This document shows, piece by piece, positions 394-9,655 of a DNA stretch of 46,974 bases. Made by a program: the position numbers and the translations under genes. Numbering within the stretch: the first letter of the stretch is position 1; each line of letters starts with the position of its first letter. This DNA comes from Promethearchaeota archaeon Loki_b32. Lineage in GTDB: Archaea > Asgardarchaeota > Lokiarchaeia > Sigyniarchaeales > SOKP01. The stretch spans positions 1-46,974 of the forward strand of contig NJBH01000031.1 in assembly GCA_005223125.1 (NCBI GenBank). Reading direction: 5' to 3'. Below the pieces are notes generated by a model. It did not search any database, was not told where the DNA came from, and saw only the letters and a program-made list of their open reading frames with translations.

Positions 394-630
394 TTACTTT
401 ACAGCTTCAAAATAGATATACCATTGCTCATCGTCATCTATGAAGTCTGTTCCTAAATGTTTGTGTTTTGTTTTTGCTAAATCACGTGGAACAGATTCAC
501 TGGCAGGCTTATAATCTGTTACAACTTTTAAAACTGTACCAGGTCTCATTTTCATGAGCTGTTTTTTGGTTTTTAAAGCAGGAACAGGGCATACTGACCC
601 GCAGACATTTAATTCCATATCAAATTTCAT
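394..630 (-). CDS. tusA: TusA/SirA-family sulfur carrier (last gene of the hdr operon)
   Basis: LNVCGSVCPVPALKTKK carries the CPxP persulfide motif, followed by LKVVTD. 78 aa. Confidence 0.9.
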   Translation of the reverse strand: MKFDMELNVCGSVCPVPALKTKKQLMKMRPGTVLKVVTDYKPASESVPRDLAKTKHKHLGTDFIDDDEQWYIYFEAVK

Positions 631-665: not shown

Positions 666-3134
666 TTAATCACATATTAAAGTAAAAATTGGCTCAACCA
701 TTTCAGGATCAACTTTCATTTCAATTTGCATTAATTGAGCTAGTCGAAGTGCTTCATATCGTACTTTTTTAGGTTCTATATTTAATTGTTTTGCCATATC
801 ACTTATAGTACTTGGTCCTTGAATGGTGATATAATCTAAAACCTTTTGTCTTGGAGTTTTTTCAAAAGTTAAAAGCTCGCGTTTTGATTTAAGATTTATA
901 GCATTATTTATTTCTTCCTCGTTTACTTCTCCTTCTTCAAATAAACCACTATTGATCGCGGCCTCTACAATATTGTTACCTCTATCTGTCCAAACTACTA
1001 CTGTTGTATATCCTTTTTGAGAACCAACTTCACCAGCAGTTAAATCAGAATAAATTGCAGGAAAATCTTGGCAATGAGAACAGAAGTGATTACAACTTAA
1101 ACATCGACGAGCTTCTTGTAACGCTATATCTTCATTAAATATTTGATCAATCTCTTCAAAATTCCATTGAATCTCTTCAGTAGCCCTTTCTAGAGTTTCT
1201 GGTTTTAGAGAATAATCCTTTGGAGGCTTTTTAGGGCCTGTGAAAAACATTTTATCTTGCTTATATCGTCCAGCTATCAAATCTTCTCCTTTTATGTATC
1301 TATCTATGGAGATGGCGGCTTCTTTTCCATGAGCTATTGCAGCAATTGCAACAGCTTTTGAATTGTTAATTATATCACCACCAGCAAACACTCCAGGTAT
1401 ATCAGTTTCAAAAGTCACATCATTTACTTTAATCTTATTTCGCTCTTTTTCTAATATGTTATCAGTAGCGACATCAATTTGATCGAAATCAACAGCTTGA
1501 CCAACCGCAATCACAATAGAATCAACTGGAATTTCATAATCTGAATTTTCAACTTTATTTAAAGGTCGTCTACCACTATCATCTGGTGTTCCCCATTCTG
1601 TTTTGTAACAATGTAACACCAGTTTGTCATCTTTATTCTGAGTAATTTGTGATGTTGAGGTTGTGAAATGATACTCCATGAATTTCATTTCATTCTCTGG
1701 GATTTCTTTTAGTGTTAATTCAAGCTGTTCTTCAGTCATGATGTCAACTAGATGAACCTTTTCAGCACCCAGTCTAAGAGCTGTCTGAGCAACGTCAACC
1801 GCAACCGGACCACCCCCAATAATACTTAAGGTTTTCCCATTGAATTCTTCCTTATTTTCCCAGAAACGATATTTTCTATCCATGAGAAACGTAATAGCGA
1901 CATGAACATTAGGTAAGTCTTCTCCTTCTAAGTGAAGTGTTCGAGGTTTATATTGACCAGTGGCGATGAAAATAGCCTCAAATTCATCATTTTTTAGATC
2001 TTCAATAGTCATTTCAGGTCCTAATGGTTTATTTAGAACTATCTCAACCCCTGAATTTTGAATAGTAGTTACATCATAATCTAATACATAGTTTGGTAAT
2101 CTAAATTGTGGTACACCGAATCGTAGCATCCCTCCGGTTTGGTCTGATTTTTCGAAAATCGTAGGAGCATAGCCCATTTTTGCTAAGAAATATCCTGCAG
2201 TTAATCCTGCGGGTCCAGAGCCTATGATTGCTATCTTTTTAGCATTCTCTTTATTCTTCTTCTTTGATTTTGAAACATTTTTAGCTTGTTCGATTTCCCA
2301 TTCTGTCACAAATTTCTTTAGTTCTCGGATTGCTACGGGATGATCATCTCCAATCAAAGTACAATCATGTTCACATTCATTAGTACAAATTCTTCCACAG
2401 ATAGAAGGAAGTGGATTACTTTCACGGATTAAATCAACAGCGTCTTGATATTGACCTTGCCTAATCAAGGAAATATATCCTTGTGCATTTACACCTGATG
2501 GACAACCACTACAGCAAGGAGAACATACTATACCTTTATCAGTTTGTTCTGTTCGCATATGAGAATTACAAAATAAACCAATTTTTAAGATATCTCTATT
2601 CATTGCTTCCTCCAATTCAGCAGCACCTCTCATCTCACAAGGAACACCAATAATTCCTATGGGTTCGAATGTTTCTCCAACAACTTTTACTAATTTTTCT
2701 AAAACTCCTGAACGGCCGTATACTACTCCAGCCTTTTTTATAACTTCATCTGGATCAGTTACAATGTCTGCTTGAGGTTTCTCATCGACATCTTGGACCA
2801 TAATTATTTCAGCAAGCGATTGATTATCCAATAGATTTTTAGCTAGGGTTGTAACTACACCACCATTAGCAGCTTTTGCCAAAATTTCAGGATTTTTACT
2901 TCTTAAAGAATAAATTGCTTTAGGTTGTTTTTGTATAAACTTTTTCTGGATAACTTGAGGACAACTTTGATAGCATTTTCCGCATTCTTGTCCATTTCTC
3001 TCGAGAATACAATAATCCTTCAATGAAGGGCGTAATACTTCCATCTCTATATGCTTACATGAGCCTACGCATAATCCACAACCTTGACATAACCCAACAT
3101 CAATAATTTCTTTTTTCAATAATTCAAAACTCAT
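666..3134 (-). CDS. Fusion flavoprotein: FrhB/FdhB-like domain split by an inserted GltD/NfnB/SudA-like Fe-S/FAD/NAD(P)H module, plus C-terminal winged HTH
   Basis: N-terminal CxxCxxCxxxC and FrhB motifs GGVVT, GVPCE, IGLFC (aa 1-190). GltD-like CP..VN..GYI, NPLPSICGRIC, IIGSGPAG, GGMLRFGVP, GVFAGGD, EARRCLSC (aa ~204-681). FrhB C-terminal CSHCQDF..SDLTAG..GS..GYTTVVVWTDRG. HTH-like tail GPSTISDMAKQLNIEPKKVRY. Confidence 0.8.
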   Translation of the reverse strand: MSFELLKKEIIDVGLCQGCGLCVGSCKHIEMEVLRPSLKDYCILERNGQECGKCYQSCPQVIQKKFIQKQPKAIYSLRSKNPEILAKAANGGVVTTLAKNLLDNQSLAEIIMVQDVDEKPQADIVTDPDEVIKKAGVVYGRSGVLEKLVKVVGETFEPIGIIGVPCEMRGAAELEEAMNRDILKIGLFCNSHMRTEQTDKGIVCSPCCSGCPSGVNAQGYISLIRQGQYQDAVDLIRESNPLPSICGRICTNECEHDCTLIGDDHPVAIRELKKFVTEWEIEQAKNVSKSKKKNKENAKKIAIIGSGPAGLTAGYFLAKMGYAPTIFEKSDQTGGMLRFGVPQFRLPNYVLDYDVTTIQNSGVEIVLNKPLGPEMTIEDLKNDEFEAIFIATGQYKPRTLHLEGEDLPNVHVAITFLMDRKYRFWENKEEFNGKTLSIIGGGPVAVDVAQTALRLGAEKVHLVDIMTEEQLELTLKEIPENEMKFMEYHFTTSTSQITQNKDDKLVLHCYKTEWGTPDDSGRRPLNKVENSDYEIPVDSIVIAVGQAVDFDQIDVATDNILEKERNKIKVNDVTFETDIPGVFAGGDIINNSKAVAIAAIAHGKEAAISIDRYIKGEDLIAGRYKQDKMFFTGPKKPPKDYSLKPETLERATEEIQWNFEEIDQIFNEDIALQEARRCLSCNHFCSHCQDFPAIYSDLTAGEVGSQKGYTTVVVWTDRGNNIVEAAINSGLFEEGEVNEEEINNAINLKSKRELLTFEKTPRQKVLDYITIQGPSTISDMAKQLNIEPKKVRYEALRLAQLMQIEMKVDPEMVEPIFTLICD

Positions 3135-3136
3135 AT

Positions 3137-4372
3137 TTATCCCTCAATTATCGTAATTTCTTTAATAATACCATTAGGATCTACGGTATATTCAACTGAA
3201 CCGTTCTTATAGTTTCCCTCAACCACATCAAAAACGTGGGTTTTATAATCATCAAATGTGTCATTTTCATTAATTTTTGATTTAAATCCACCAAAGAAGA
3301 TATTAGATAAATTCATATTACCCGCAATTTTTCGTATTTTATTTGTTATTTCTTTATACTGTTTTGGATTTTCATTTTCTAAAGCTTTCTTAAGATCAGT
3401 TTCTAATGTCAATAATTCTTCACGATATTTCTTTGTTCCCTCGCTTATTTCAATTTGATTCGCTTTTTCATATGATTCAATAATTTTTAGCGTTAATGAA
3501 ATTGACTTACTTCCTCCTAATAATCCAGAAATTAATGGCAATTCTTCAATTAATCTTCCTGTAAATACATTTTCTAGTAATGTACCCGAGGATGTTATTC
3601 TTCCTTTAGGCAAACCTGAAGTAGGCAATGTGAATCTAAAGAAATTACCAAGAATATCTGGTAAACTTCTTATTACATCATCTTCTTCATCCCCAAGTTT
3701 ATCGGTAGCACCTTTTTCAGAGTGTTCAGTTGCTACTTCGATATTTCCCATAAGAGTACCAAACATTCCTAACATTCTAATACCAGATCTTTTTACCATC
3801 GGTTTGCAACCTCTGCAAGGTGTGTTGTAGTTGATACATCGTTCTTTACATTCTTTAGCAATAAATCCATTACATAGAAATCCTAAATCATTATAACACG
3901 TTTCGTTATCATCTAATTCAATTTGGCGGTGTACAGAATCTAAATATTCACAAGTTGCACTACGTGCACACACCTCACAGAGAGTTTTCAGTTCTGATGG
4001 TTCATCACCGGTTATCAATGACTTCAATTCCTCAATTTCCCCTAAACAACCATTAACATTTATTTGATTATCAATAAATTCTTTTAAAGGTGTAATTTCA
4101 TAACCATGTTGATTCGCTAATGCGAAAATTCCTCCCATTGTTGTACAATTCCCATAAGCAATAACACGTTCTGAGTTTGTTTTAATTTTTTCTAAATTTT
4201 TCTTATCACTCGGTAATAAATACCCCGTAATTACAGCTACTTCAGTTTTTTCTCCCTTCCAATTTTGTGGTTCACTAATAAATTGTATCTTATTATCAGT
4301 ATCAAGCTTCAGGAGTAAGGTTTCATTAAAACATTTATTACATCCATTAAATTGAAAAATTTTAACATCCAT
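3137..4372 (-). CDS. MvhG-like hydrogenase small subunit fused to a degenerate [NiFe] large-subunit (MvhA-like) remnant
   Basis: Small-subunit motifs GCNKC, AYGNCTTMGGI, NGC, LCEVC, CY..LGFLC.G and C..RC....PCRGC. The C-terminal ~145 aa resemble MvhA segments but contain no Cys. Confidence 0.75.
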   Translation of the reverse strand: MDVKIFQFNGCNKCFNETLLLKLDTDNKIQFISEPQNWKGEKTEVAVITGYLLPSDKKNLEKIKTNSERVIAYGNCTTMGGIFALANQHGYEITPLKEFIDNQINVNGCLGEIEELKSLITGDEPSELKTLCEVCARSATCEYLDSVHRQIELDDNETCYNDLGFLCNGFIAKECKERCINYNTPCRGCKPMVKRSGIRMLGMFGTLMGNIEVATEHSEKGATDKLGDEEDDVIRSLPDILGNFFRFTLPTSGLPKGRITSSGTLLENVFTGRLIEELPLISGLLGGSKSISLTLKIIESYEKANQIEISEGTKKYREELLTLETDLKKALENENPKQYKEITNKIRKIAGNMNLSNIFFGGFKSKINENDTFDDYKTHVFDVVEGNYKNGSVEYTVDPNGIIKEITIIEG

Positions 4373-4820
4373 CTTTTATAGTCCCCTCATCTTTAATTGC
4401 TGTTGATAATCTTTCTATTATATCTTCAAAATCTCCTACTGCAGTTTCACCCTCTGCGGCTCTTGAAGTATACTGGTTTACGAATTGATCACTATATCCT
4501 AATTCTTTAAATAACTTCTTCATAAGTTTAATTCTGTGCATTGAAAGCACATTTCCGTTAAAGAAATGACACGCTCCTAAACAGCATCCAACACAAGCAA
4601 CCGCATCTGCCCCATTATTTAATGCATCCATAATCTGAATAGGACCAATTTGACCAGTACATTGAACTCTGATAATTCTTATCGATGGATCATATCCTAT
4701 TCGCGCAACACCTGCAGTATTGGCAGACCCTTGTCCACATTCATTACACATGAATACAACAACATCCTGAATTTTTTCTTTTATTAATTCATCCGTGATT
4801 TCACATTCGCTCATTCGCAT
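4362..4820 (-). CDS. mvhD: MvhD/FlpD [2Fe-2S] subunit (start probably the second Met, 4814)
   Basis: FMCNEC, IRIIRVQCTG, GADAV..VGC..GACHF.NGN. Overlaps the hdrA stop. Confidence 0.9.
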   Translation of the reverse strand: MRMSECEITDELIKEKIQDVVVFMCNECGQGSANTAGVARIGYDPSIRIIRVQCTGQIGPIQIMDALNNGADAVACVGCCLGACHFFNGNVLSMHRIKLMKKLFKELGYSDQFVNQYTSRAAEGETAVGDFEDIIERLSTAIKDEGTIKDGC

Positions 4821-6841
4821 ACAGCACCTCCGCCAGATACTGCAATAATTTCATCTAATAGTTGATCATCGCTAAAATTAATTAATTGAATTGCTCCTGT
4901 AGGACACACTGGCATACACATGCCACAAGATTTACACGCAATTTCATTTACAACTGGAACACCATTTTCATCAATGTCTATTGCTGCCGGAGCGCATACA
5001 GTTTTACATAATCCACAATTTACGCATAAATCATAATCAATTGAAGGAATTAACATTTCTCTTTCGATATAACCCTTGACTAAAGGAGCTGCAGCTAAAG
5101 CGGCAGCATTTCCTGCATGAGCAACAGTTTCTGAAATATCTTTGGGACCCTGAATTGCTCCTGCTAAGAAAATACCTCCCTTACTACTTAAGGTTGGATT
5201 CATTTTAATGTGAAATTCTTTTAGAAATCCTTCTTTGGATCGTAAAATTTGAAGTTTAGAGCCAAGAGGACCAATACCCTCAGGAGGAACCATAGCAGCA
5301 GAAAGTACAACTAAATCTGCTTTTAGTTTTAAGGGTGTCTGGCTTAATGTATCCTCAACAATTACTCTTAATTCTCCTGAAATTGGATCTTTAATAATCT
5401 CTGATGGTCTTCCTCGTATAAATCTCACTCCAATCTCTTGAGCAGATTTGTAAAGCTCTTCAAAATTCAATCCTGGAGTTCTTATATCTATATAACATAT
5501 AGAAACAACAGTATCAGGGTACATTTCTTTAATAATTCGCGCGTTTTTTATCGCAAATTTACAACAAACACCAGTACAATATTGATTTCCTACTTGATCA
5601 TTTCTACTTCCTACACATTGGATCATAACCACATTTTTTGGGATCTTTCCATCAGAAGGTCGTAAAACTTCACTGTTTGTTAATGAAGTAGGAGATAACA
5701 TTCTCTCTAATTTTAATTGCGTAATGACATCTTCGTATCCTTCTTGACCATAATGATAAGGTTCAATTTCAGCTGGGTTATATTCATCATAACCGACAGC
5801 AACAATAATCGAGCCAACTTTTACAGTCTTAGTCTCAGGTTGCATAGAAAAATCAACGGCTTGGACAGGGCAGACATTAATACAAGTATTACATTCGATA
5901 CAATCTTTCTTATCTCTTACGTATGTAGCGGGTATTGCCTGTGGATACGCTTTATAGATTGCATTTCTCATAGACATTCCCATATCCCATTCATTTGGCA
6001 ATTCAACAGGACAATTTGCAGCACAATCTCCACATGAAGTGCAGTTATCTTTAACATATCTAGGCTTTATTTCAATTTCAACTTCAAAATTTCCTAAAGA
6101 TCCTTCAATGTTTTTAATTTGAGCATTTGTATATAGTTCTATTAAATTATGATTCGCTACTCCATTCGTGAGAGGTGAAATTGAACATTGCGGACATTCT
6201 AATGTTGGAAATGTTTTATTTAATCGTGTCATATGACCCCCTATAGTAGATTCTTTTTCTACTAAATATACGGGAATCCCTAATTCAGCCATATCAAAAG
6301 CTGATCGGAGTCCCGCAATTCCAGCTCCGATAACTAAAGCTGCTTTTGTTGTCGGAATCCTTCTAGTTTCAACATCTTCCAACTTTCTTGCTCGATTAAC
6401 ACCTGCTTCAACTAATCTCATAGCTTTCTGAGTTGCTTTTTCTTTTTCTTTTTGGTGAACCCAACTATCATATTCTCTCACATTGACTTGTTGGTGGCGA
6501 TGTTTATTTAATCCAACTTCTTCAATTGCTCTTGCAAAAGTTTTACCATGTTGATTTTTAGAACATGATGCAACCACCGTTCTGTTAACGCCTAATTCCT
6601 TGATAGAATCCTTAACCATTTGAACTCCTGGTTTTGAACACATGAACATATAATGCTCAGCCTTAATAACATTAGGTAACGTTTTAGCATACTTAGCAAC
6701 TTCAGCCACATCGACAGTTCCAGCTATATTATGACCACAGTGACAAACAAACACACCAATTCTAGGTTCTTCAGAATCTTCAGCTATTGCCACACCCTCA
6801 ACTTCTTCTGTTTCTTTTATTTTATTATCTTTAGCTGCCAT
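4811..6841 (-). CDS. hdrA: Heterodisulfide reductase subunit A (FAD, electron-bifurcating type)
   Basis: IGVFVCHCG.NIAGTVDV, IGAGIAG, KTFPTLECPQC, inserted and C-terminal 2x[4Fe-4S] domains, IQCVGSR...YCTGVCC, GIFLAG..QGPKDI. Confidence 0.95.
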   Translation of the reverse strand: MAAKDNKIKETEEVEGVAIAEDSEEPRIGVFVCHCGHNIAGTVDVAEVAKYAKTLPNVIKAEHYMFMCSKPGVQMVKDSIKELGVNRTVVASCSKNQHGKTFARAIEEVGLNKHRHQQVNVREYDSWVHQKEKEKATQKAMRLVEAGVNRARKLEDVETRRIPTTKAALVIGAGIAGLRSAFDMAELGIPVYLVEKESTIGGHMTRLNKTFPTLECPQCSISPLTNGVANHNLIELYTNAQIKNIEGSLGNFEVEIEIKPRYVKDNCTSCGDCAANCPVELPNEWDMGMSMRNAIYKAYPQAIPATYVRDKKDCIECNTCINVCPVQAVDFSMQPETKTVKVGSIIVAVGYDEYNPAEIEPYHYGQEGYEDVITQLKLERMLSPTSLTNSEVLRPSDGKIPKNVVMIQCVGSRNDQVGNQYCTGVCCKFAIKNARIIKEMYPDTVVSICYIDIRTPGLNFEELYKSAQEIGVRFIRGRPSEIIKDPISGELRVIVEDTLSQTPLKLKADLVVLSAAMVPPEGIGPLGSKLQILRSKEGFLKEFHIKMNPTLSSKGGIFLAGAIQGPKDISETVAHAGNAAALAAAPLVKGYIEREMLIPSIDYDLCVNCGLCKTVCAPAAIDIDENGVPVVNEIACKSCGMCMPVCPTGAIQLINFSDDQLLDEIIAVSGGGAVCE

Positions 6842-7762
6842 TTAAATTGCTTCCTCTCCCTCTTTTTTCATTTCTTCTCCCCCAAAAATATAATTCTTGC
6901 CCATTAATTGATATTGGAGACCAACAAATTCTTGATCCATTCCCATACAATAGGCAGTTAATTGAGAAAGATGAATTACAGGATAATCGTAATTACAATT
7001 CTTATTTTTATTCAAATAATCTTGCCCAGTTTCATATTGTAAATGACAAAACGGACAAATATCTAATATAAAATCGGGTTTTACTTCATCAATATTTTTC
7101 ATTTTTTCAGCAAATATAGTCATACTTGCGTTTCCATCATAAGCTTTAACCCCTCCTCCAGCACCGCAGCAAGTAAGTTGTTCTTTAAATCTAACTGATT
7201 CTATTCCTAAAACTTCAACAAATTCCTCTACAATTGTTGGTCCTTCTGAACTTTCAATCTCTCTAATCCTTGTTGGTTTCAGAAAATGACAACCGTAATG
7301 AACAGCAGCTTTAGCATTTACCTTTCGAACGAGATGATCTTCAATACCCCATGGTCCAACCTCGTATCCTAAGACTTCTGCAATATGTCTTACATCTATG
7401 GAGCCCTTAAACTCATAATCTCCGATCAGTTTCAGCCTTTCATTTACCAAATCCCGATGTTCTTCACTCTCCTTTAAGTGTTTATTAACTTCTTGGAGTG
7501 TACCAAAACACCCATTACAAACAGTTAAAATATCAGCATCTAACTGTTCTGCTATACAAAGATTTCTTGCTGCTGCTACCATCCAATCAACTTTATTAAA
7601 TGAACGGAATACTCCTGGAGCAGGACAACATGTTGCTCTTTCCATATCTAAAAGTTCATAACCTAGTTTTCCCATTACAAATTTTGTTGATTTTTCAATA
7701 GCAGGATACCGATTTGGCATCAAACAACCCAAAAAGAAAGCAAATGTGTTTTCTTTAGTCAT
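6842..7762 (-). CDS. hdrB: Heterodisulfide reductase subunit B (two CCG domains)
   Basis: FLGC, TCCPAPG, VCNGC, HYGCH, TCCGAGGG, ICPFCHLQY. Confidence 0.95.
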   Translation of the reverse strand: MTKENTFAFFLGCLMPNRYPAIEKSTKFVMGKLGYELLDMERATCCPAPGVFRSFNKVDWMVAAARNLCIAEQLDADILTVCNGCFGTLQEVNKHLKESEEHRDLVNERLKLIGDYEFKGSIDVRHIAEVLGYEVGPWGIEDHLVRKVNAKAAVHYGCHFLKPTRIREIESSEGPTIVEEFVEVLGIESVRFKEQLTCCGAGGGVKAYDGNASMTIFAEKMKNIDEVKPDFILDICPFCHLQYETGQDYLNKNKNCNYDYPVIHLSQLTAYCMGMDQEFVGLQYQLMGKNYIFGGEEMKKEGEEAI

Positions 7763-7765
7763 TTT

Positions 7766-8323
7766 TTACGCATCCTCTTCTTCTTTCTTTTCCTCTTTAA
7801 CTGGAGGTAAATCAAACATATGTTCTTCAATATTTTTCAAATCTTTATCATCCCCCTCCTGTTTAAATTTAAACGCAGTAGGGGGTAATTCTTCTAATCC
7901 TAATTCGACTCTTCGTTTTTTAATTTCATCATTTATTGGTACGGCATGTCCAAAGTTCTTCAAATACCCTACAACAGCCCTATGATTAGGAGAAATATTT
8001 CCTAATTTAGTAGCATAATTTCTTAACTCCATGATTACATCTGTAGGTCTCACATCACGCGGACACCGTTCATAACACTGATAACATGTAGTACATAACC
8101 ATATATCAGGATCCTTTAAAACCGATAAATCTCCTAACACAACTTTTCTAATTATTAAACGAGTCTTTAAAGCAGTCCATCTACCACTTTCACAGCTTGC
8201 TGTACATGTTCCACATTGGATGCACTGCCAAATATTTGATTTTCTCTCAATATTTTTGAAAAAATCTTTATCAAAATCTTCGTCTGTTTTAAACTCCCTT
8301 GATTCTTCTTCTACATCAGACGT
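7766..8323 (-). CDS. hdrC: Heterodisulfide reductase subunit C, apparently ACG-initiated (185 aa)
   Basis: The frame extends upstream of the ORF-track start to include the first cluster motif CIQCGTCTASC. The second motif is WLCTTCYQCYERCPRDV. The frame is closed by TGA-TGA-TAA just before ACG at 8323, which follows GGTGA. Confidence 0.9.
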   Translation of the reverse strand, partial: TSDVEEESREFKTDEDFDKDFFKNIERKSNIWQCIQCGTCTASCESGRWTALKTRLIIRKVVLGDLSVLKDPDIWLCTTCYQCYERCPRDVRPTDVIMELRNYATKLGNISPNHRAVVGYLKNFGHAVPINDEIKKRRVELGLEELPPTAFKFKQEGDDKDLKNIEEHMFDLPPVKEEKKEEEDA

Positions 8324-8383: not shown

Positions 8384-8806
8384 TTATAAGGAGACTATTC
8401 TGCCTCCATTGCTCATTTCTAAAAATGAAGCAGCTCCAACAGGATCTTCAGCAAAATCGAGTATATTTTCATGCTTAATTCCCATTAAATCCATTGTCAT
8501 TTGACATGGAAATAATTTTAAATTACCACTTTCGACACCGTCCTTAATTAAAGCCCATGGATCTTCAATACCAAACTTTTTCATCCTTTTTCTAAATATT
8601 TTTGCTCCCATACCTTTCATAGGAGTAGGCATGCCAGCAACTTTTGGTTTAAACTTTCTTGTTAATAGGTTCAAACCCCAAAAAGTAAAGAAAAAGTTCA
8701 TCTTCATATCCATAGCGTCCCCTGTTGAACCAAGGATAGCCATCATCGCAAACTTCTCGAATGATTTATCCTTTACAATAAAATTTATTGTTTCAGTTTC
8801 AGCCAC
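8384..8806 (-). CDS. DsrE2/DrsE-family sulfurtransferase (peroxiredoxin-like fold)
   Basis: FFFTFWGL, FPCQMTMDLMG (conserved Cys) and GAASFL. Likely GTG start at 8806 after AGGTGG. Confidence 0.85.
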   Translation of the reverse strand: MAETETINFIVKDKSFEKFAMMAILGSTGDAMDMKMNFFFTFWGLNLLTRKFKPKVAGMPTPMKGMGAKIFRKRMKKFGIEDPWALIKDGVESGNLKLFPCQMTMDLMGIKHENILDFAEDPVGAASFLEMSNGGRIVSL

Positions 8807-8928
8807 ATATACCACCTTTTTTTGTTTGTTTTTTTTTGGAAATTTCCTTTATTTTGTTTAATACTAAACTTTTTCTGGTTTTAACCAGATTTTATTTAAA
8901 AATTTTTTGATTAAATTTTTTTATTCCA

Positions 8929-9270
8929 CTACATCCATGATATAACTTTTGGTGTAGCATCAATAACATCTATAAGATCATCATATTCTATTGATTTAAT
9001 TTTGTCAGCTATATATTCTGGAGCTATCCCGCGAGCCTTCAAATCTGATTTCAATGCAAATACAACCACATCTAAGCTAAGGAGTTCTTCCATTTGTTTT
9101 GGTATTTTTCCCTTTGTTGATATACCAATTACACCATCGTGAATCAAGACTAATCCAAGTTTCGTGTTCTTTTTAATCTGACTTTTTAAAATTGGTAATA
9201 ATCTCTGCAATTGATTCCCTGTTAACCCACTAAATCCAAACAAATATATAATATCAAGATTTTCTGTCAT
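8929..9270 (-). CDS. DsrH/TusB-like sulfur relay subunit
   Basis: LIHDGV, FALKSDLKARGI and IEYDDLIDVI..TPKVISW. Third gene of an E-F-H triad. Confidence 0.8.
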   Translation of the reverse strand: MTENLDIIYLFGFSGLTGNQLQRLLPILKSQIKKNTKLGLVLIHDGVIGISTKGKIPKQMEELLSLDVVVFALKSDLKARGIAPEYIADKIKSIEYDDLIDVIDATPKVISWM

Positions 9271-9286
9271 ACTTTTTTATCCTTCC

Positions 9287-9655
9287 TTAAAATCTAAAAG
9301 ATGTATCGGCTTGAGCAATCAAATCTGTTAAATCATCATAATCAATGATTTTCAGGTTCTCATACTCAATCAAATCATCTTTTGTTAATCCTGCCTCAGT
9401 TAAAGCTGATTCAATAAGAAATACTTCCAAATCAGACAGATCCGCCATCTCTAATACTTCTGCTAAAGGATCCATCCCTACAGCTTCAGGATCACAATAT
9501 TTACTAAATAGATACACAGCATCTCCCGTGAATACAATCTTACAATCTATAAATTCTCCAAGGGCAGTGAATCCTGAACCGATCCTTATTGCTTCACCTG
9601 CCGAATTTCTTCCAATAGGCGATTGGTCACTTATTATTACTACAGATTCCACCAT
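9287..9655 (-). CDS. DsrF/TusC-like sulfur relay subunit
   Basis: SPIG...AGEAIR, VFTGDAVY and SALTEAGL. ATG at 9655 follows GGAGGT. Confidence 0.8.
   Translation of the reverse strand: MVESVVIISDQSPIGRNSAGEAIRIGSGFTALGEFIDCKIVFTGDAVYLFSKYCDPEAVGMDPLAEVLEMADLSDLEVFLIESALTEAGLTKDDLIEYENLKIIDYDDLTDLIAQADTSFRF

Follow-up and report, generated by a model that had tools for sequence, protein, structure and literature searches.

Several described systems resemble, each in part, the gene analysed here. In Elp-Hdr and Fdh-Hdr an FrhB-family subunit (ElpB/FdhB) and an MvhD-type connector lead into HdrA without a hydrogenase and beside a dead relic, and Elp-Hdr is the precedent for combining a catalytically dead partner with a flavin input subunit on Hdr (PMC12350162). 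FlxABCD-HdrABC, as described in PMC5861303 after Ramos et al. 2015, couples an NADH dehydrogenase to heterodisulfide reductase, and HdrL carries a GltD-like NADH site in HdrA itself (PMC2702500). For FrhB the contacts to F420 are known: a three-stranded sheet (residues 148-172, with IGKGK) binds the cofactor, and S209 also lies beside it (Mills 2013, PMC3591093). Circularly permuted GltD modules with a C-terminal RCLxC and a Lys-ligated cluster, embedded among the Fe-S domains of a larger chain, are found in StnC of Sporomusa ovata (8OH5) and in NfnA of the Bfu-type NfnABC (9N5U, 9BOV). There they serve as non-bifurcating NAD(P)H input sites, whereas the bifurcating NfnB has a Glu ligand (PMC10482914, PMC12018979). 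Lokiarchaeal Hdr loci are usually interpreted as H2-linked MvhADG-HdrABC (PMC7015854), and a preprint links H2 to TusA/DsrE persulfide reduction (10.1101/2025.07.22.663070).

We analysed a stretch of 46,974 nucleotides from the Promethearchaeota archaeon Loki_b32, referred to as the window. A preliminary description had proposed that one of its genes carries a GltD/NfnB-like module nested inside FrhB. The gene is composed as follows:

666..3134, minus strand: nested fusion gene of 822 aa, in the order ferredoxin, FrhB N-half, GltD-like insert, FrhB C-half, winged helix
2949..3134, minus strand: aa 1-62, 2[4Fe-4S] ferredoxin domain (FpoF matches aa 9-198)
2517..2948, minus strand: aa 63-206, FrhB N-half with the FAD-pyrophosphate motif ANGGVVT, C166, C189 and the 17-aa host hairpin N190-P206
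1083..2516, minus strand: aa 207-684, the insert, by alignment with NfnB 4YLF a circularly permuted GltD/NfnL-like module
1743-1745, minus strand: codon of D464 at the end of the second Rossmann strand (GGGPVA...LVDIM)
882..1082, minus strand: aa 685-751, FrhB C-half with ligands C685 and C688 and with E702 at the S209 position (aa 684-751 match 3zfs_C 191-256)
669..857, minus strand: aa 760-822, winged-helix domain, kept in every form of the gene

The domain scan, the structure model and 158 orthologues all agree with a nested module. Pfam placed FrhB_N at aa 75-146, FrhB_C in two stretches (with a match at aa 685-735), Fer4_20 at 192-283 and Pyr_redox_2 at 300-603, and NCBIfam frhB aligned aa 684-742 with profile positions 190-248. 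The FrhB cluster ligands are split as had been proposed: GVPC (C166) and GLFC (C189) precede the insert, and CSHCQDF (C685, C688) directly follows it. The expected size of about 480 aa also held, while the bounds shifted from about aa 204-681 to C207-F684 (478 aa). Orthologues are single genes; more than 120 full-length ones share 71-96% identity, and nearly all named ones belong to Promethearchaeota/Lokiarchaeota, among them the cultured Promethearchaeum syntrophicum and Ca. Lokiarchaeum ossiferum. Across 158 full-length orthologues no Fe-S ligand varies, the four FrhB ligands and the eight ferredoxin cysteines (C16, C19, C22, C26, C42, C51, C54, C58) included. In the full-length AF2 model the two host halves fold into one FrhB (206 residues on 9r51_B, Z 23.3, rmsd 2.9, model range 66-758); the Fe-S parts at 1-65, 190-209 and 634-690 had a pLDDT below 50, and no distances were taken there. 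Because every Fe-S ligand is invariant and the FrhB halves close in the model, the nested fusion is real and under selection, and reflects neither chance nor misassembly.

The best PDB matches to the insert were StnC and NfnA (E 1e-77 to 1e-89). Its residues 205-617 match NfnB 4YLF 45-462, and residues 648-681 match the N-terminus of the same protein (9-42), indicative of a circular permutation. With its permuted order, a C-terminal RCLxC, two clusters, a Lys ligand and an FAD Rossmann fold the insert has the features of the StnC/NfnA module. Homology and the deletion stub described below suggest C207/C258/C678/C681 as ligands of a stapling cluster and C211/C250/C254/K273 as ligands of an FAD-proximal one. 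C207 and the last motif of the insert, RCLSC (C678, C681), would then share one cluster, such that the insert ends lie adjacent in space. Both ends closing on one cluster would be sufficient reason for a clean insertion into loops. K273, which aligns with K170 of StnC and K165 of NfnA, is invariant in the 158 orthologues, as is R345; the FAD and dinucleotide glycine motifs are invariant, too. NfnB/NfnL of NfnAB (4YLF, 5JCA) have the same fold and cofactors but are not permuted, Glu-ligated, bifurcating, NADP-specific and dependent on NfnA; the Glu ligand is absent from the insert and no nfnA lies in the operon. By its sequence features the insert thus classes as a Lys-ligated, non-bifurcating module of the StnC/NfnA type.

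Related modules were seen in other hosts. An HdrD-like protein of the same genome (920 aa; L022:6155-8917, G000:C50) has an acid-type GltD module, 57% identical to the insert, nested in its first CCG domain, and is widespread in the genus. Permuted GltD modules also occur in a NuoG-like 844-aa protein with the strand end CLECRE (G000:C67:57423-59969, minus strand), in a 1648-aa HdrL-like protein (L031:529-5475) and in a 768-aa HdrA-like protein (L038:6021-8327). Downstream of an nfnA-like gene, an end-to-end fusion of 905 aa (G000:C64:7347-10082, plus strand) joins a winged-helix-like N-terminus, an FrhB with F420 sheet and a canonical NfnB (Glu, YRR).

The fusion is the penultimate gene of an operon with the order tusA-dsrE-dsrF-dsrH-dsrE2-(lrp)-hdrC-hdrB-hdrA-mvhD-mvhG*-fusion-tusA. 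Its neighbours in the window are:

394..630, minus strand: second tusA, in nearly all loci the next gene downstream of the fusion
3137..4372, minus strand: mvhG*, MvhG-like aa 1-256 plus about 155 aa that are probably a metal-free NiFe large-subunit relic
4362..4820, minus strand: mvhD (Pfam FlpD)
4811..6841, minus strand: hdrA of the methanogen type, with the equivalents of Lys409 and Glu356 (5ODC) kept
6842..8323, minus strand: hdrB and hdrC, the hdrC start lying upstream of the listed GTG
8384..10279, minus strand: sulfur-relay genes tusA, dsrE, dsrF, dsrH and dsrE2-like, in conserved order
10544..11050, plus strand: Lrp/AsnC regulator, divergent from the operon in the window and part of it in other families

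The fusion is thus encoded together with hdrABC and mvhD. HdrB, like HdrA of the methanogen type, scored above the TIGR03288 cut-off (CoB-CoM HdrB), and HdrA is of the bifurcating type. No mvhA is present in the operon; the two MvhA-type genes of the genome lie elsewhere, each beside its own small subunit. MvhG* retains all cluster cysteines. Its C-terminal 155 aa or so (3137-3622) resemble the N-terminal helices of NiFe large subunits, which were their best matches (FrhA E 0.0025, others E 0.1; MvhA of the same genome E 0.0018 at a probability of only 15%), and the RxCGxC nickel motif is replaced. We take this as a weak lead to a probable metal-free MvhA relic, fused to MvhG in Loki and in another Asgard family. 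Among 201 sampled genomes of the phylum about 32 had the mvhG* marker, most of them from the family of the fusion and one other.

Further features were noted in and around the operon. An imperfect inverted repeat (TCACTA...TAGTGA) between tusA and lrp at 10425-10458 is a candidate operator; together with a TATA-like box, TTTAAATA, at 10377-10388 it is partly conserved in related loci. PIN/VapC-like ORFs recognised by eye flank the operon (20-337 and 12909-13679), one with a small upstream partner gene, and two NosD-like surface proteins of the beta-helix type, each with a membrane anchor at its C-terminus, are encoded at 11316-12683 and 17823-19319. An RNA run (X1) was rejected as evidence of transcription: the P. 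syntrophicum locus forms one 20-kb contig in it, with a flat depth equal to that of the flanks.

The slot directly after mvhD and mvhG* is conserved across several Asgard families, and five forms of the gene were found for it: insert-free proteins, acid-type fusions with D/E at the end of the second Rossmann strand (151 of the 158 orthologues), YRR-type fusions (the other 7), deletion stubs, and a ferredoxin with the winged helix alone. No parts other than ferredoxin and winged helix occur in all five. The insert-free relatives (about 345 aa) were found by a search with a short allele; they share the operon slot in another Asgard family (one is labelled Thorarchaeota) and already possess the winged helix. 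The deletion stubs (366-399 aa) retain two pieces of the insert, 77% and 50% identical, and four cysteines that match the stapling cluster, which indirectly supports the ligand grouping given above. In the tree they group in a single clade (92/98) that lies within the full fusions. Owing to these remnants and this nesting we rejected the short alleles as an ancestral empty state, and they read as a derived deletion. The complete genome G044 and locus L067 have, in the slot after mvhG*, a protein of 142-143 aa comprising only ferredoxin and winged helix; such proteins are encoded at L055:8865-9293 and L067:780-1211, and the tail of the fusion is 45% identical to this form. Locus L067 carries two operon copies, one with this short protein and one with a YRR fusion. 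Since insert-free, stub and ferredoxin-winged-helix forms, all without an NAD(P) site, occupy the slot, the complex can work without an NAD(P) port.

From these data we infer, with moderate confidence, that the fusion acts as the NAD(H) input/output arm of a hydrogenase-free, methanogen-type bifurcating HdrABC-MvhD-MvhG* complex. Electrons would pass from NAD(H) to the insert FAD, the Lys-ligated cluster, the stapling cluster and the FrhB cluster, and onward over the two ferredoxin clusters to MvhG*, MvhD and the HdrA FAD. From HdrA one part would go to ferredoxin and the other to a disulfide or persulfide at HdrB, this acceptor being probably carried by the co-encoded TusA/DsrE proteins, and the complex may operate in reverse. 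The FrhB fold would be a chassis that no longer binds F420, with ferredoxin and winged helix as constant adaptor. A broader version, which we put forward only tentatively, is that Asgard archaea possess a bifurcating Hdr, fed by NAD(H) and free of hydrogenase, for the reduction of persulfides bound to TusA/DsrE, in which a ferredoxin-FrhB-winged-helix socket takes up swappable input cartridges (none, NADP-type, NAD-type or stub) and the winged helix may self-regulate the operon.

The winged helix itself might have another role. As had been proposed for the C-terminal 60 aa or so, the tail has a winged-helix fold: an insert-free orthologue was modelled at a pLDDT of 92, and its residues 283-346 match such domains with a Z of 10-12 and an rmsd of 1-2, among them MarR, ArsR and Z-alpha domains, and in the window protein Pfam HTH matches were sub-threshold only. 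Z-alpha domains recognise their target via Asn/Tyr residues; these are absent from the tail, and a Z-alpha identity was rejected despite the matching fold. A winged helix related to the tail (E 1e-4) is also found at the C-terminus of an MvhD of the same genome (G000:C6:26348-27118, minus strand), and winged-helix-like segments were seen by eye on FrhB and HdrA-MvhD proteins of its contig C36. The fusion could be a PutA-like trigger enzyme whose winged helix binds the operon promoter while the clusters report the redox state, the ferredoxin-winged-helix proteins being pure redox sensors. The fold matches would suit such a function, as would the near-invariance of R792, L796, R797 and Q800 in the fusions (R792 and R797 of the recognition helix are invariant) and the persistence of ferredoxin and winged helix, with slightly basic tails, at two loci where all flavin parts were deleted. 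However, the mean net charge of the tail is -2.1 in full fusions, -2.7 in stubs and -3.4 in insert-free forms, compared to +2.2 for Lrp-type HTHs of the same genome, the basic residues of the fusions are not kept in insert-free forms, and the related domain on MvhD, the winged-helix-like segments seen by eye on FrhB and HdrA proteins and the dedicated Lrp gene of the operon also speak against it. We therefore consider a trigger enzyme unlikely. Given the mostly negative tail and the Lrp/AsnC gene that travels with the operon, a structural role is more likely than the DNA-binding moonlighting that the preliminary description raised as a possibility.

The NAD(H) arm proposed above depends on the nucleotide site of the insert. 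GGGPVA (440-445) and LVDIM (D464) align with GGGNTA..YRR of NfnA, StnC and NfnB, which bears out the earlier reading of this motif; the NADPH-selecting YRR after the second Rossmann strand is not present in the window protein. By the textbook rule a dinucleotide-binding strand that ends in an acidic residue favours NAD(H), and the prevalence of D/E among the orthologues agrees with the preference suggested before. The fingerprint is mixed: the acid-type site retains the GxGxxA alanine, which is classically linked to NADP. Between acid and YRR forms a nucleotide-binding patch of about 55 aa is only 20-25% identical, compared to 49-58% elsewhere, and the MPA motif is missing from the remodelled patch of the acid forms, such that this site might prefer another ligand. 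In a tree built without the patch the two types are separated by a single split (100/98), and repeated NAD/NADP patch swaps were rejected on this ground; a module tree with outgroups gave a polytomy that includes the HdrD-nested copy. Depending on the genome, YRR forms sit in the common operon slot or at a duplicate position. Their presence in the common slot together with the divergence of the whole patch is as expected for an NAD/NADP specificity switch, and the pattern fits one such switch. Some genomes have a second copy of the fusion, of the YRR type and with an eroded FrhB FAD motif, 3' of the downstream tusA (L023:1647-4090, where the copy is split into two frames, and L069:10001-12448). 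An acid-type site that is still NADP(H)-specific, or degenerate, in a module that would only conduct electrons through its Fe-S clusters and flavin or let another donor dock, seems rather improbable to us. The kept GxGxxA, the replacement of the GGGN asparagine by P or A, the strong remodelling and the deletion of the module in one clade with four cysteines left would be in line with it, yet two features speak against it: at the ribose position 151 sequences, and also the HdrD-nested paralogue, have a strict D/E followed by a hydrophobic residue, and the FAD and dinucleotide glycine motifs are invariant. A preference of the acid-type fusions for NADH is thus likely from the residue pattern.

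The arrangement of ferredoxin and FrhB at the N-terminus is that of FpoF/Fsr-type FrhB proteins. With FpoF, the Fsr N-terminus and the F420 reductase subunits 8RIU and 8RJA the fusion shares the ferredoxin, the FrhB fold (Z 27-33 for an insert-free orthologue), the four ligands and, for the most part, the FAD motif; it differs by the added winged-helix tail and 478-aa insert and by its F420 site, where about 40 residues of the F420 subdomain, with the 148-172 sheet and its IGKGK, are missing. The S209 of S209-V210 is altered to E/D in 157 of 158 fusions and to F in insert-free forms. The linker from GLFC to CxxC measures 57-58 aa in canonical FrhB and 17 aa in insert-free proteins, the length of the host hairpin N190-P206. 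Since the insert-free linker is as short as that of the fusion host, the insert entered exactly before the first Cys of CxxC, removing nothing. This contradicts the earlier proposal that the insert replaced the FrhB middle segment, which insert-free orthologues already lack. In a host-only tree rooted on canonical FrhB nine insert-free proteins are sister to the Lokiarchaeal fusions, while a tenth, stand-alone and on a long branch, falls among the fusions. The missing F420 sheet of the insert-free slot-mates and their sister position suggest that loss of the F420 site probably preceded insertion. Of the proposed F420-type input subunit re-wired to NADH, the electron-input role for the adjacent Hdr is retained, but not a re-wiring by the insert.

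A second flavin on the host is plausible: in the xxGGxVT motif GG is kept in 154 of 158 orthologues and Y139, the Y76 equivalent, in 151, with V/I at the K75 equivalent, and this site has no obvious hydride donor. That its FAD still handles F420 or another hydride carrier, in an F420:NAD(P) transhydrogenase or a two-port Hdr input, is quite improbable. The kept motifs and the need of insert-free forms for some input would speak for it, as would cofD and cofE, with which the genome makes F420 and which also count against the NAD(H) arm proposed above. The absent F420 sheet, the changed S209, the intact end-to-end FrhB-NfnB fusion and about 10 intact FrhB paralogues that the genome already has for F420, and the complete loss of the FAD motif in one YRR subclade speak against it.

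Each module of the NAD(H)-fed complex that we favour is already known, and the permuted module is embedded in larger redox chains in StnC, NfnA and HdrL. The combination differs: StnC and NfnA have a NuoG/Fdh-like host, a HydBC-type core and an NADPH/YRR site, compared to the FrhB host, D/E and Hdr partner of the fusion. ElpB has an intact site that oxidises F420H2, whereas the fusion lacks the F420 sheet and contains an inserted pyridine-nucleotide module; the relic near the fusion, unlike that of Elp-Hdr, apparently derives from MvhA and forms one protein with MvhG. In Flx an FNR-type FlxA works together with FlxBC, and neither Flx nor HdrL has an FrhB chassis or MvhG*. The proposed complex would thus work like Flx-Hdr and be built like Elp-Hdr, as a member of neither. 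In the open-access papers searched we found no account of this module inserted into an FrhB without F420 site, in an Hdr operon that has sulfur-relay genes and no hydrogenase.

A single gene slot hence documents domain insertion, a switch of the cofactor site and deletion as a natural series of unusual completeness, and the insertion has a structural rationale. The operon is present in two cultured species, which makes the proposal testable. The operon has no hydrogenase active site and would have its own pyridine-nucleotide port which, if true, would alter the way in which NADH, ferredoxin and sulfur are balanced in these fermenters.
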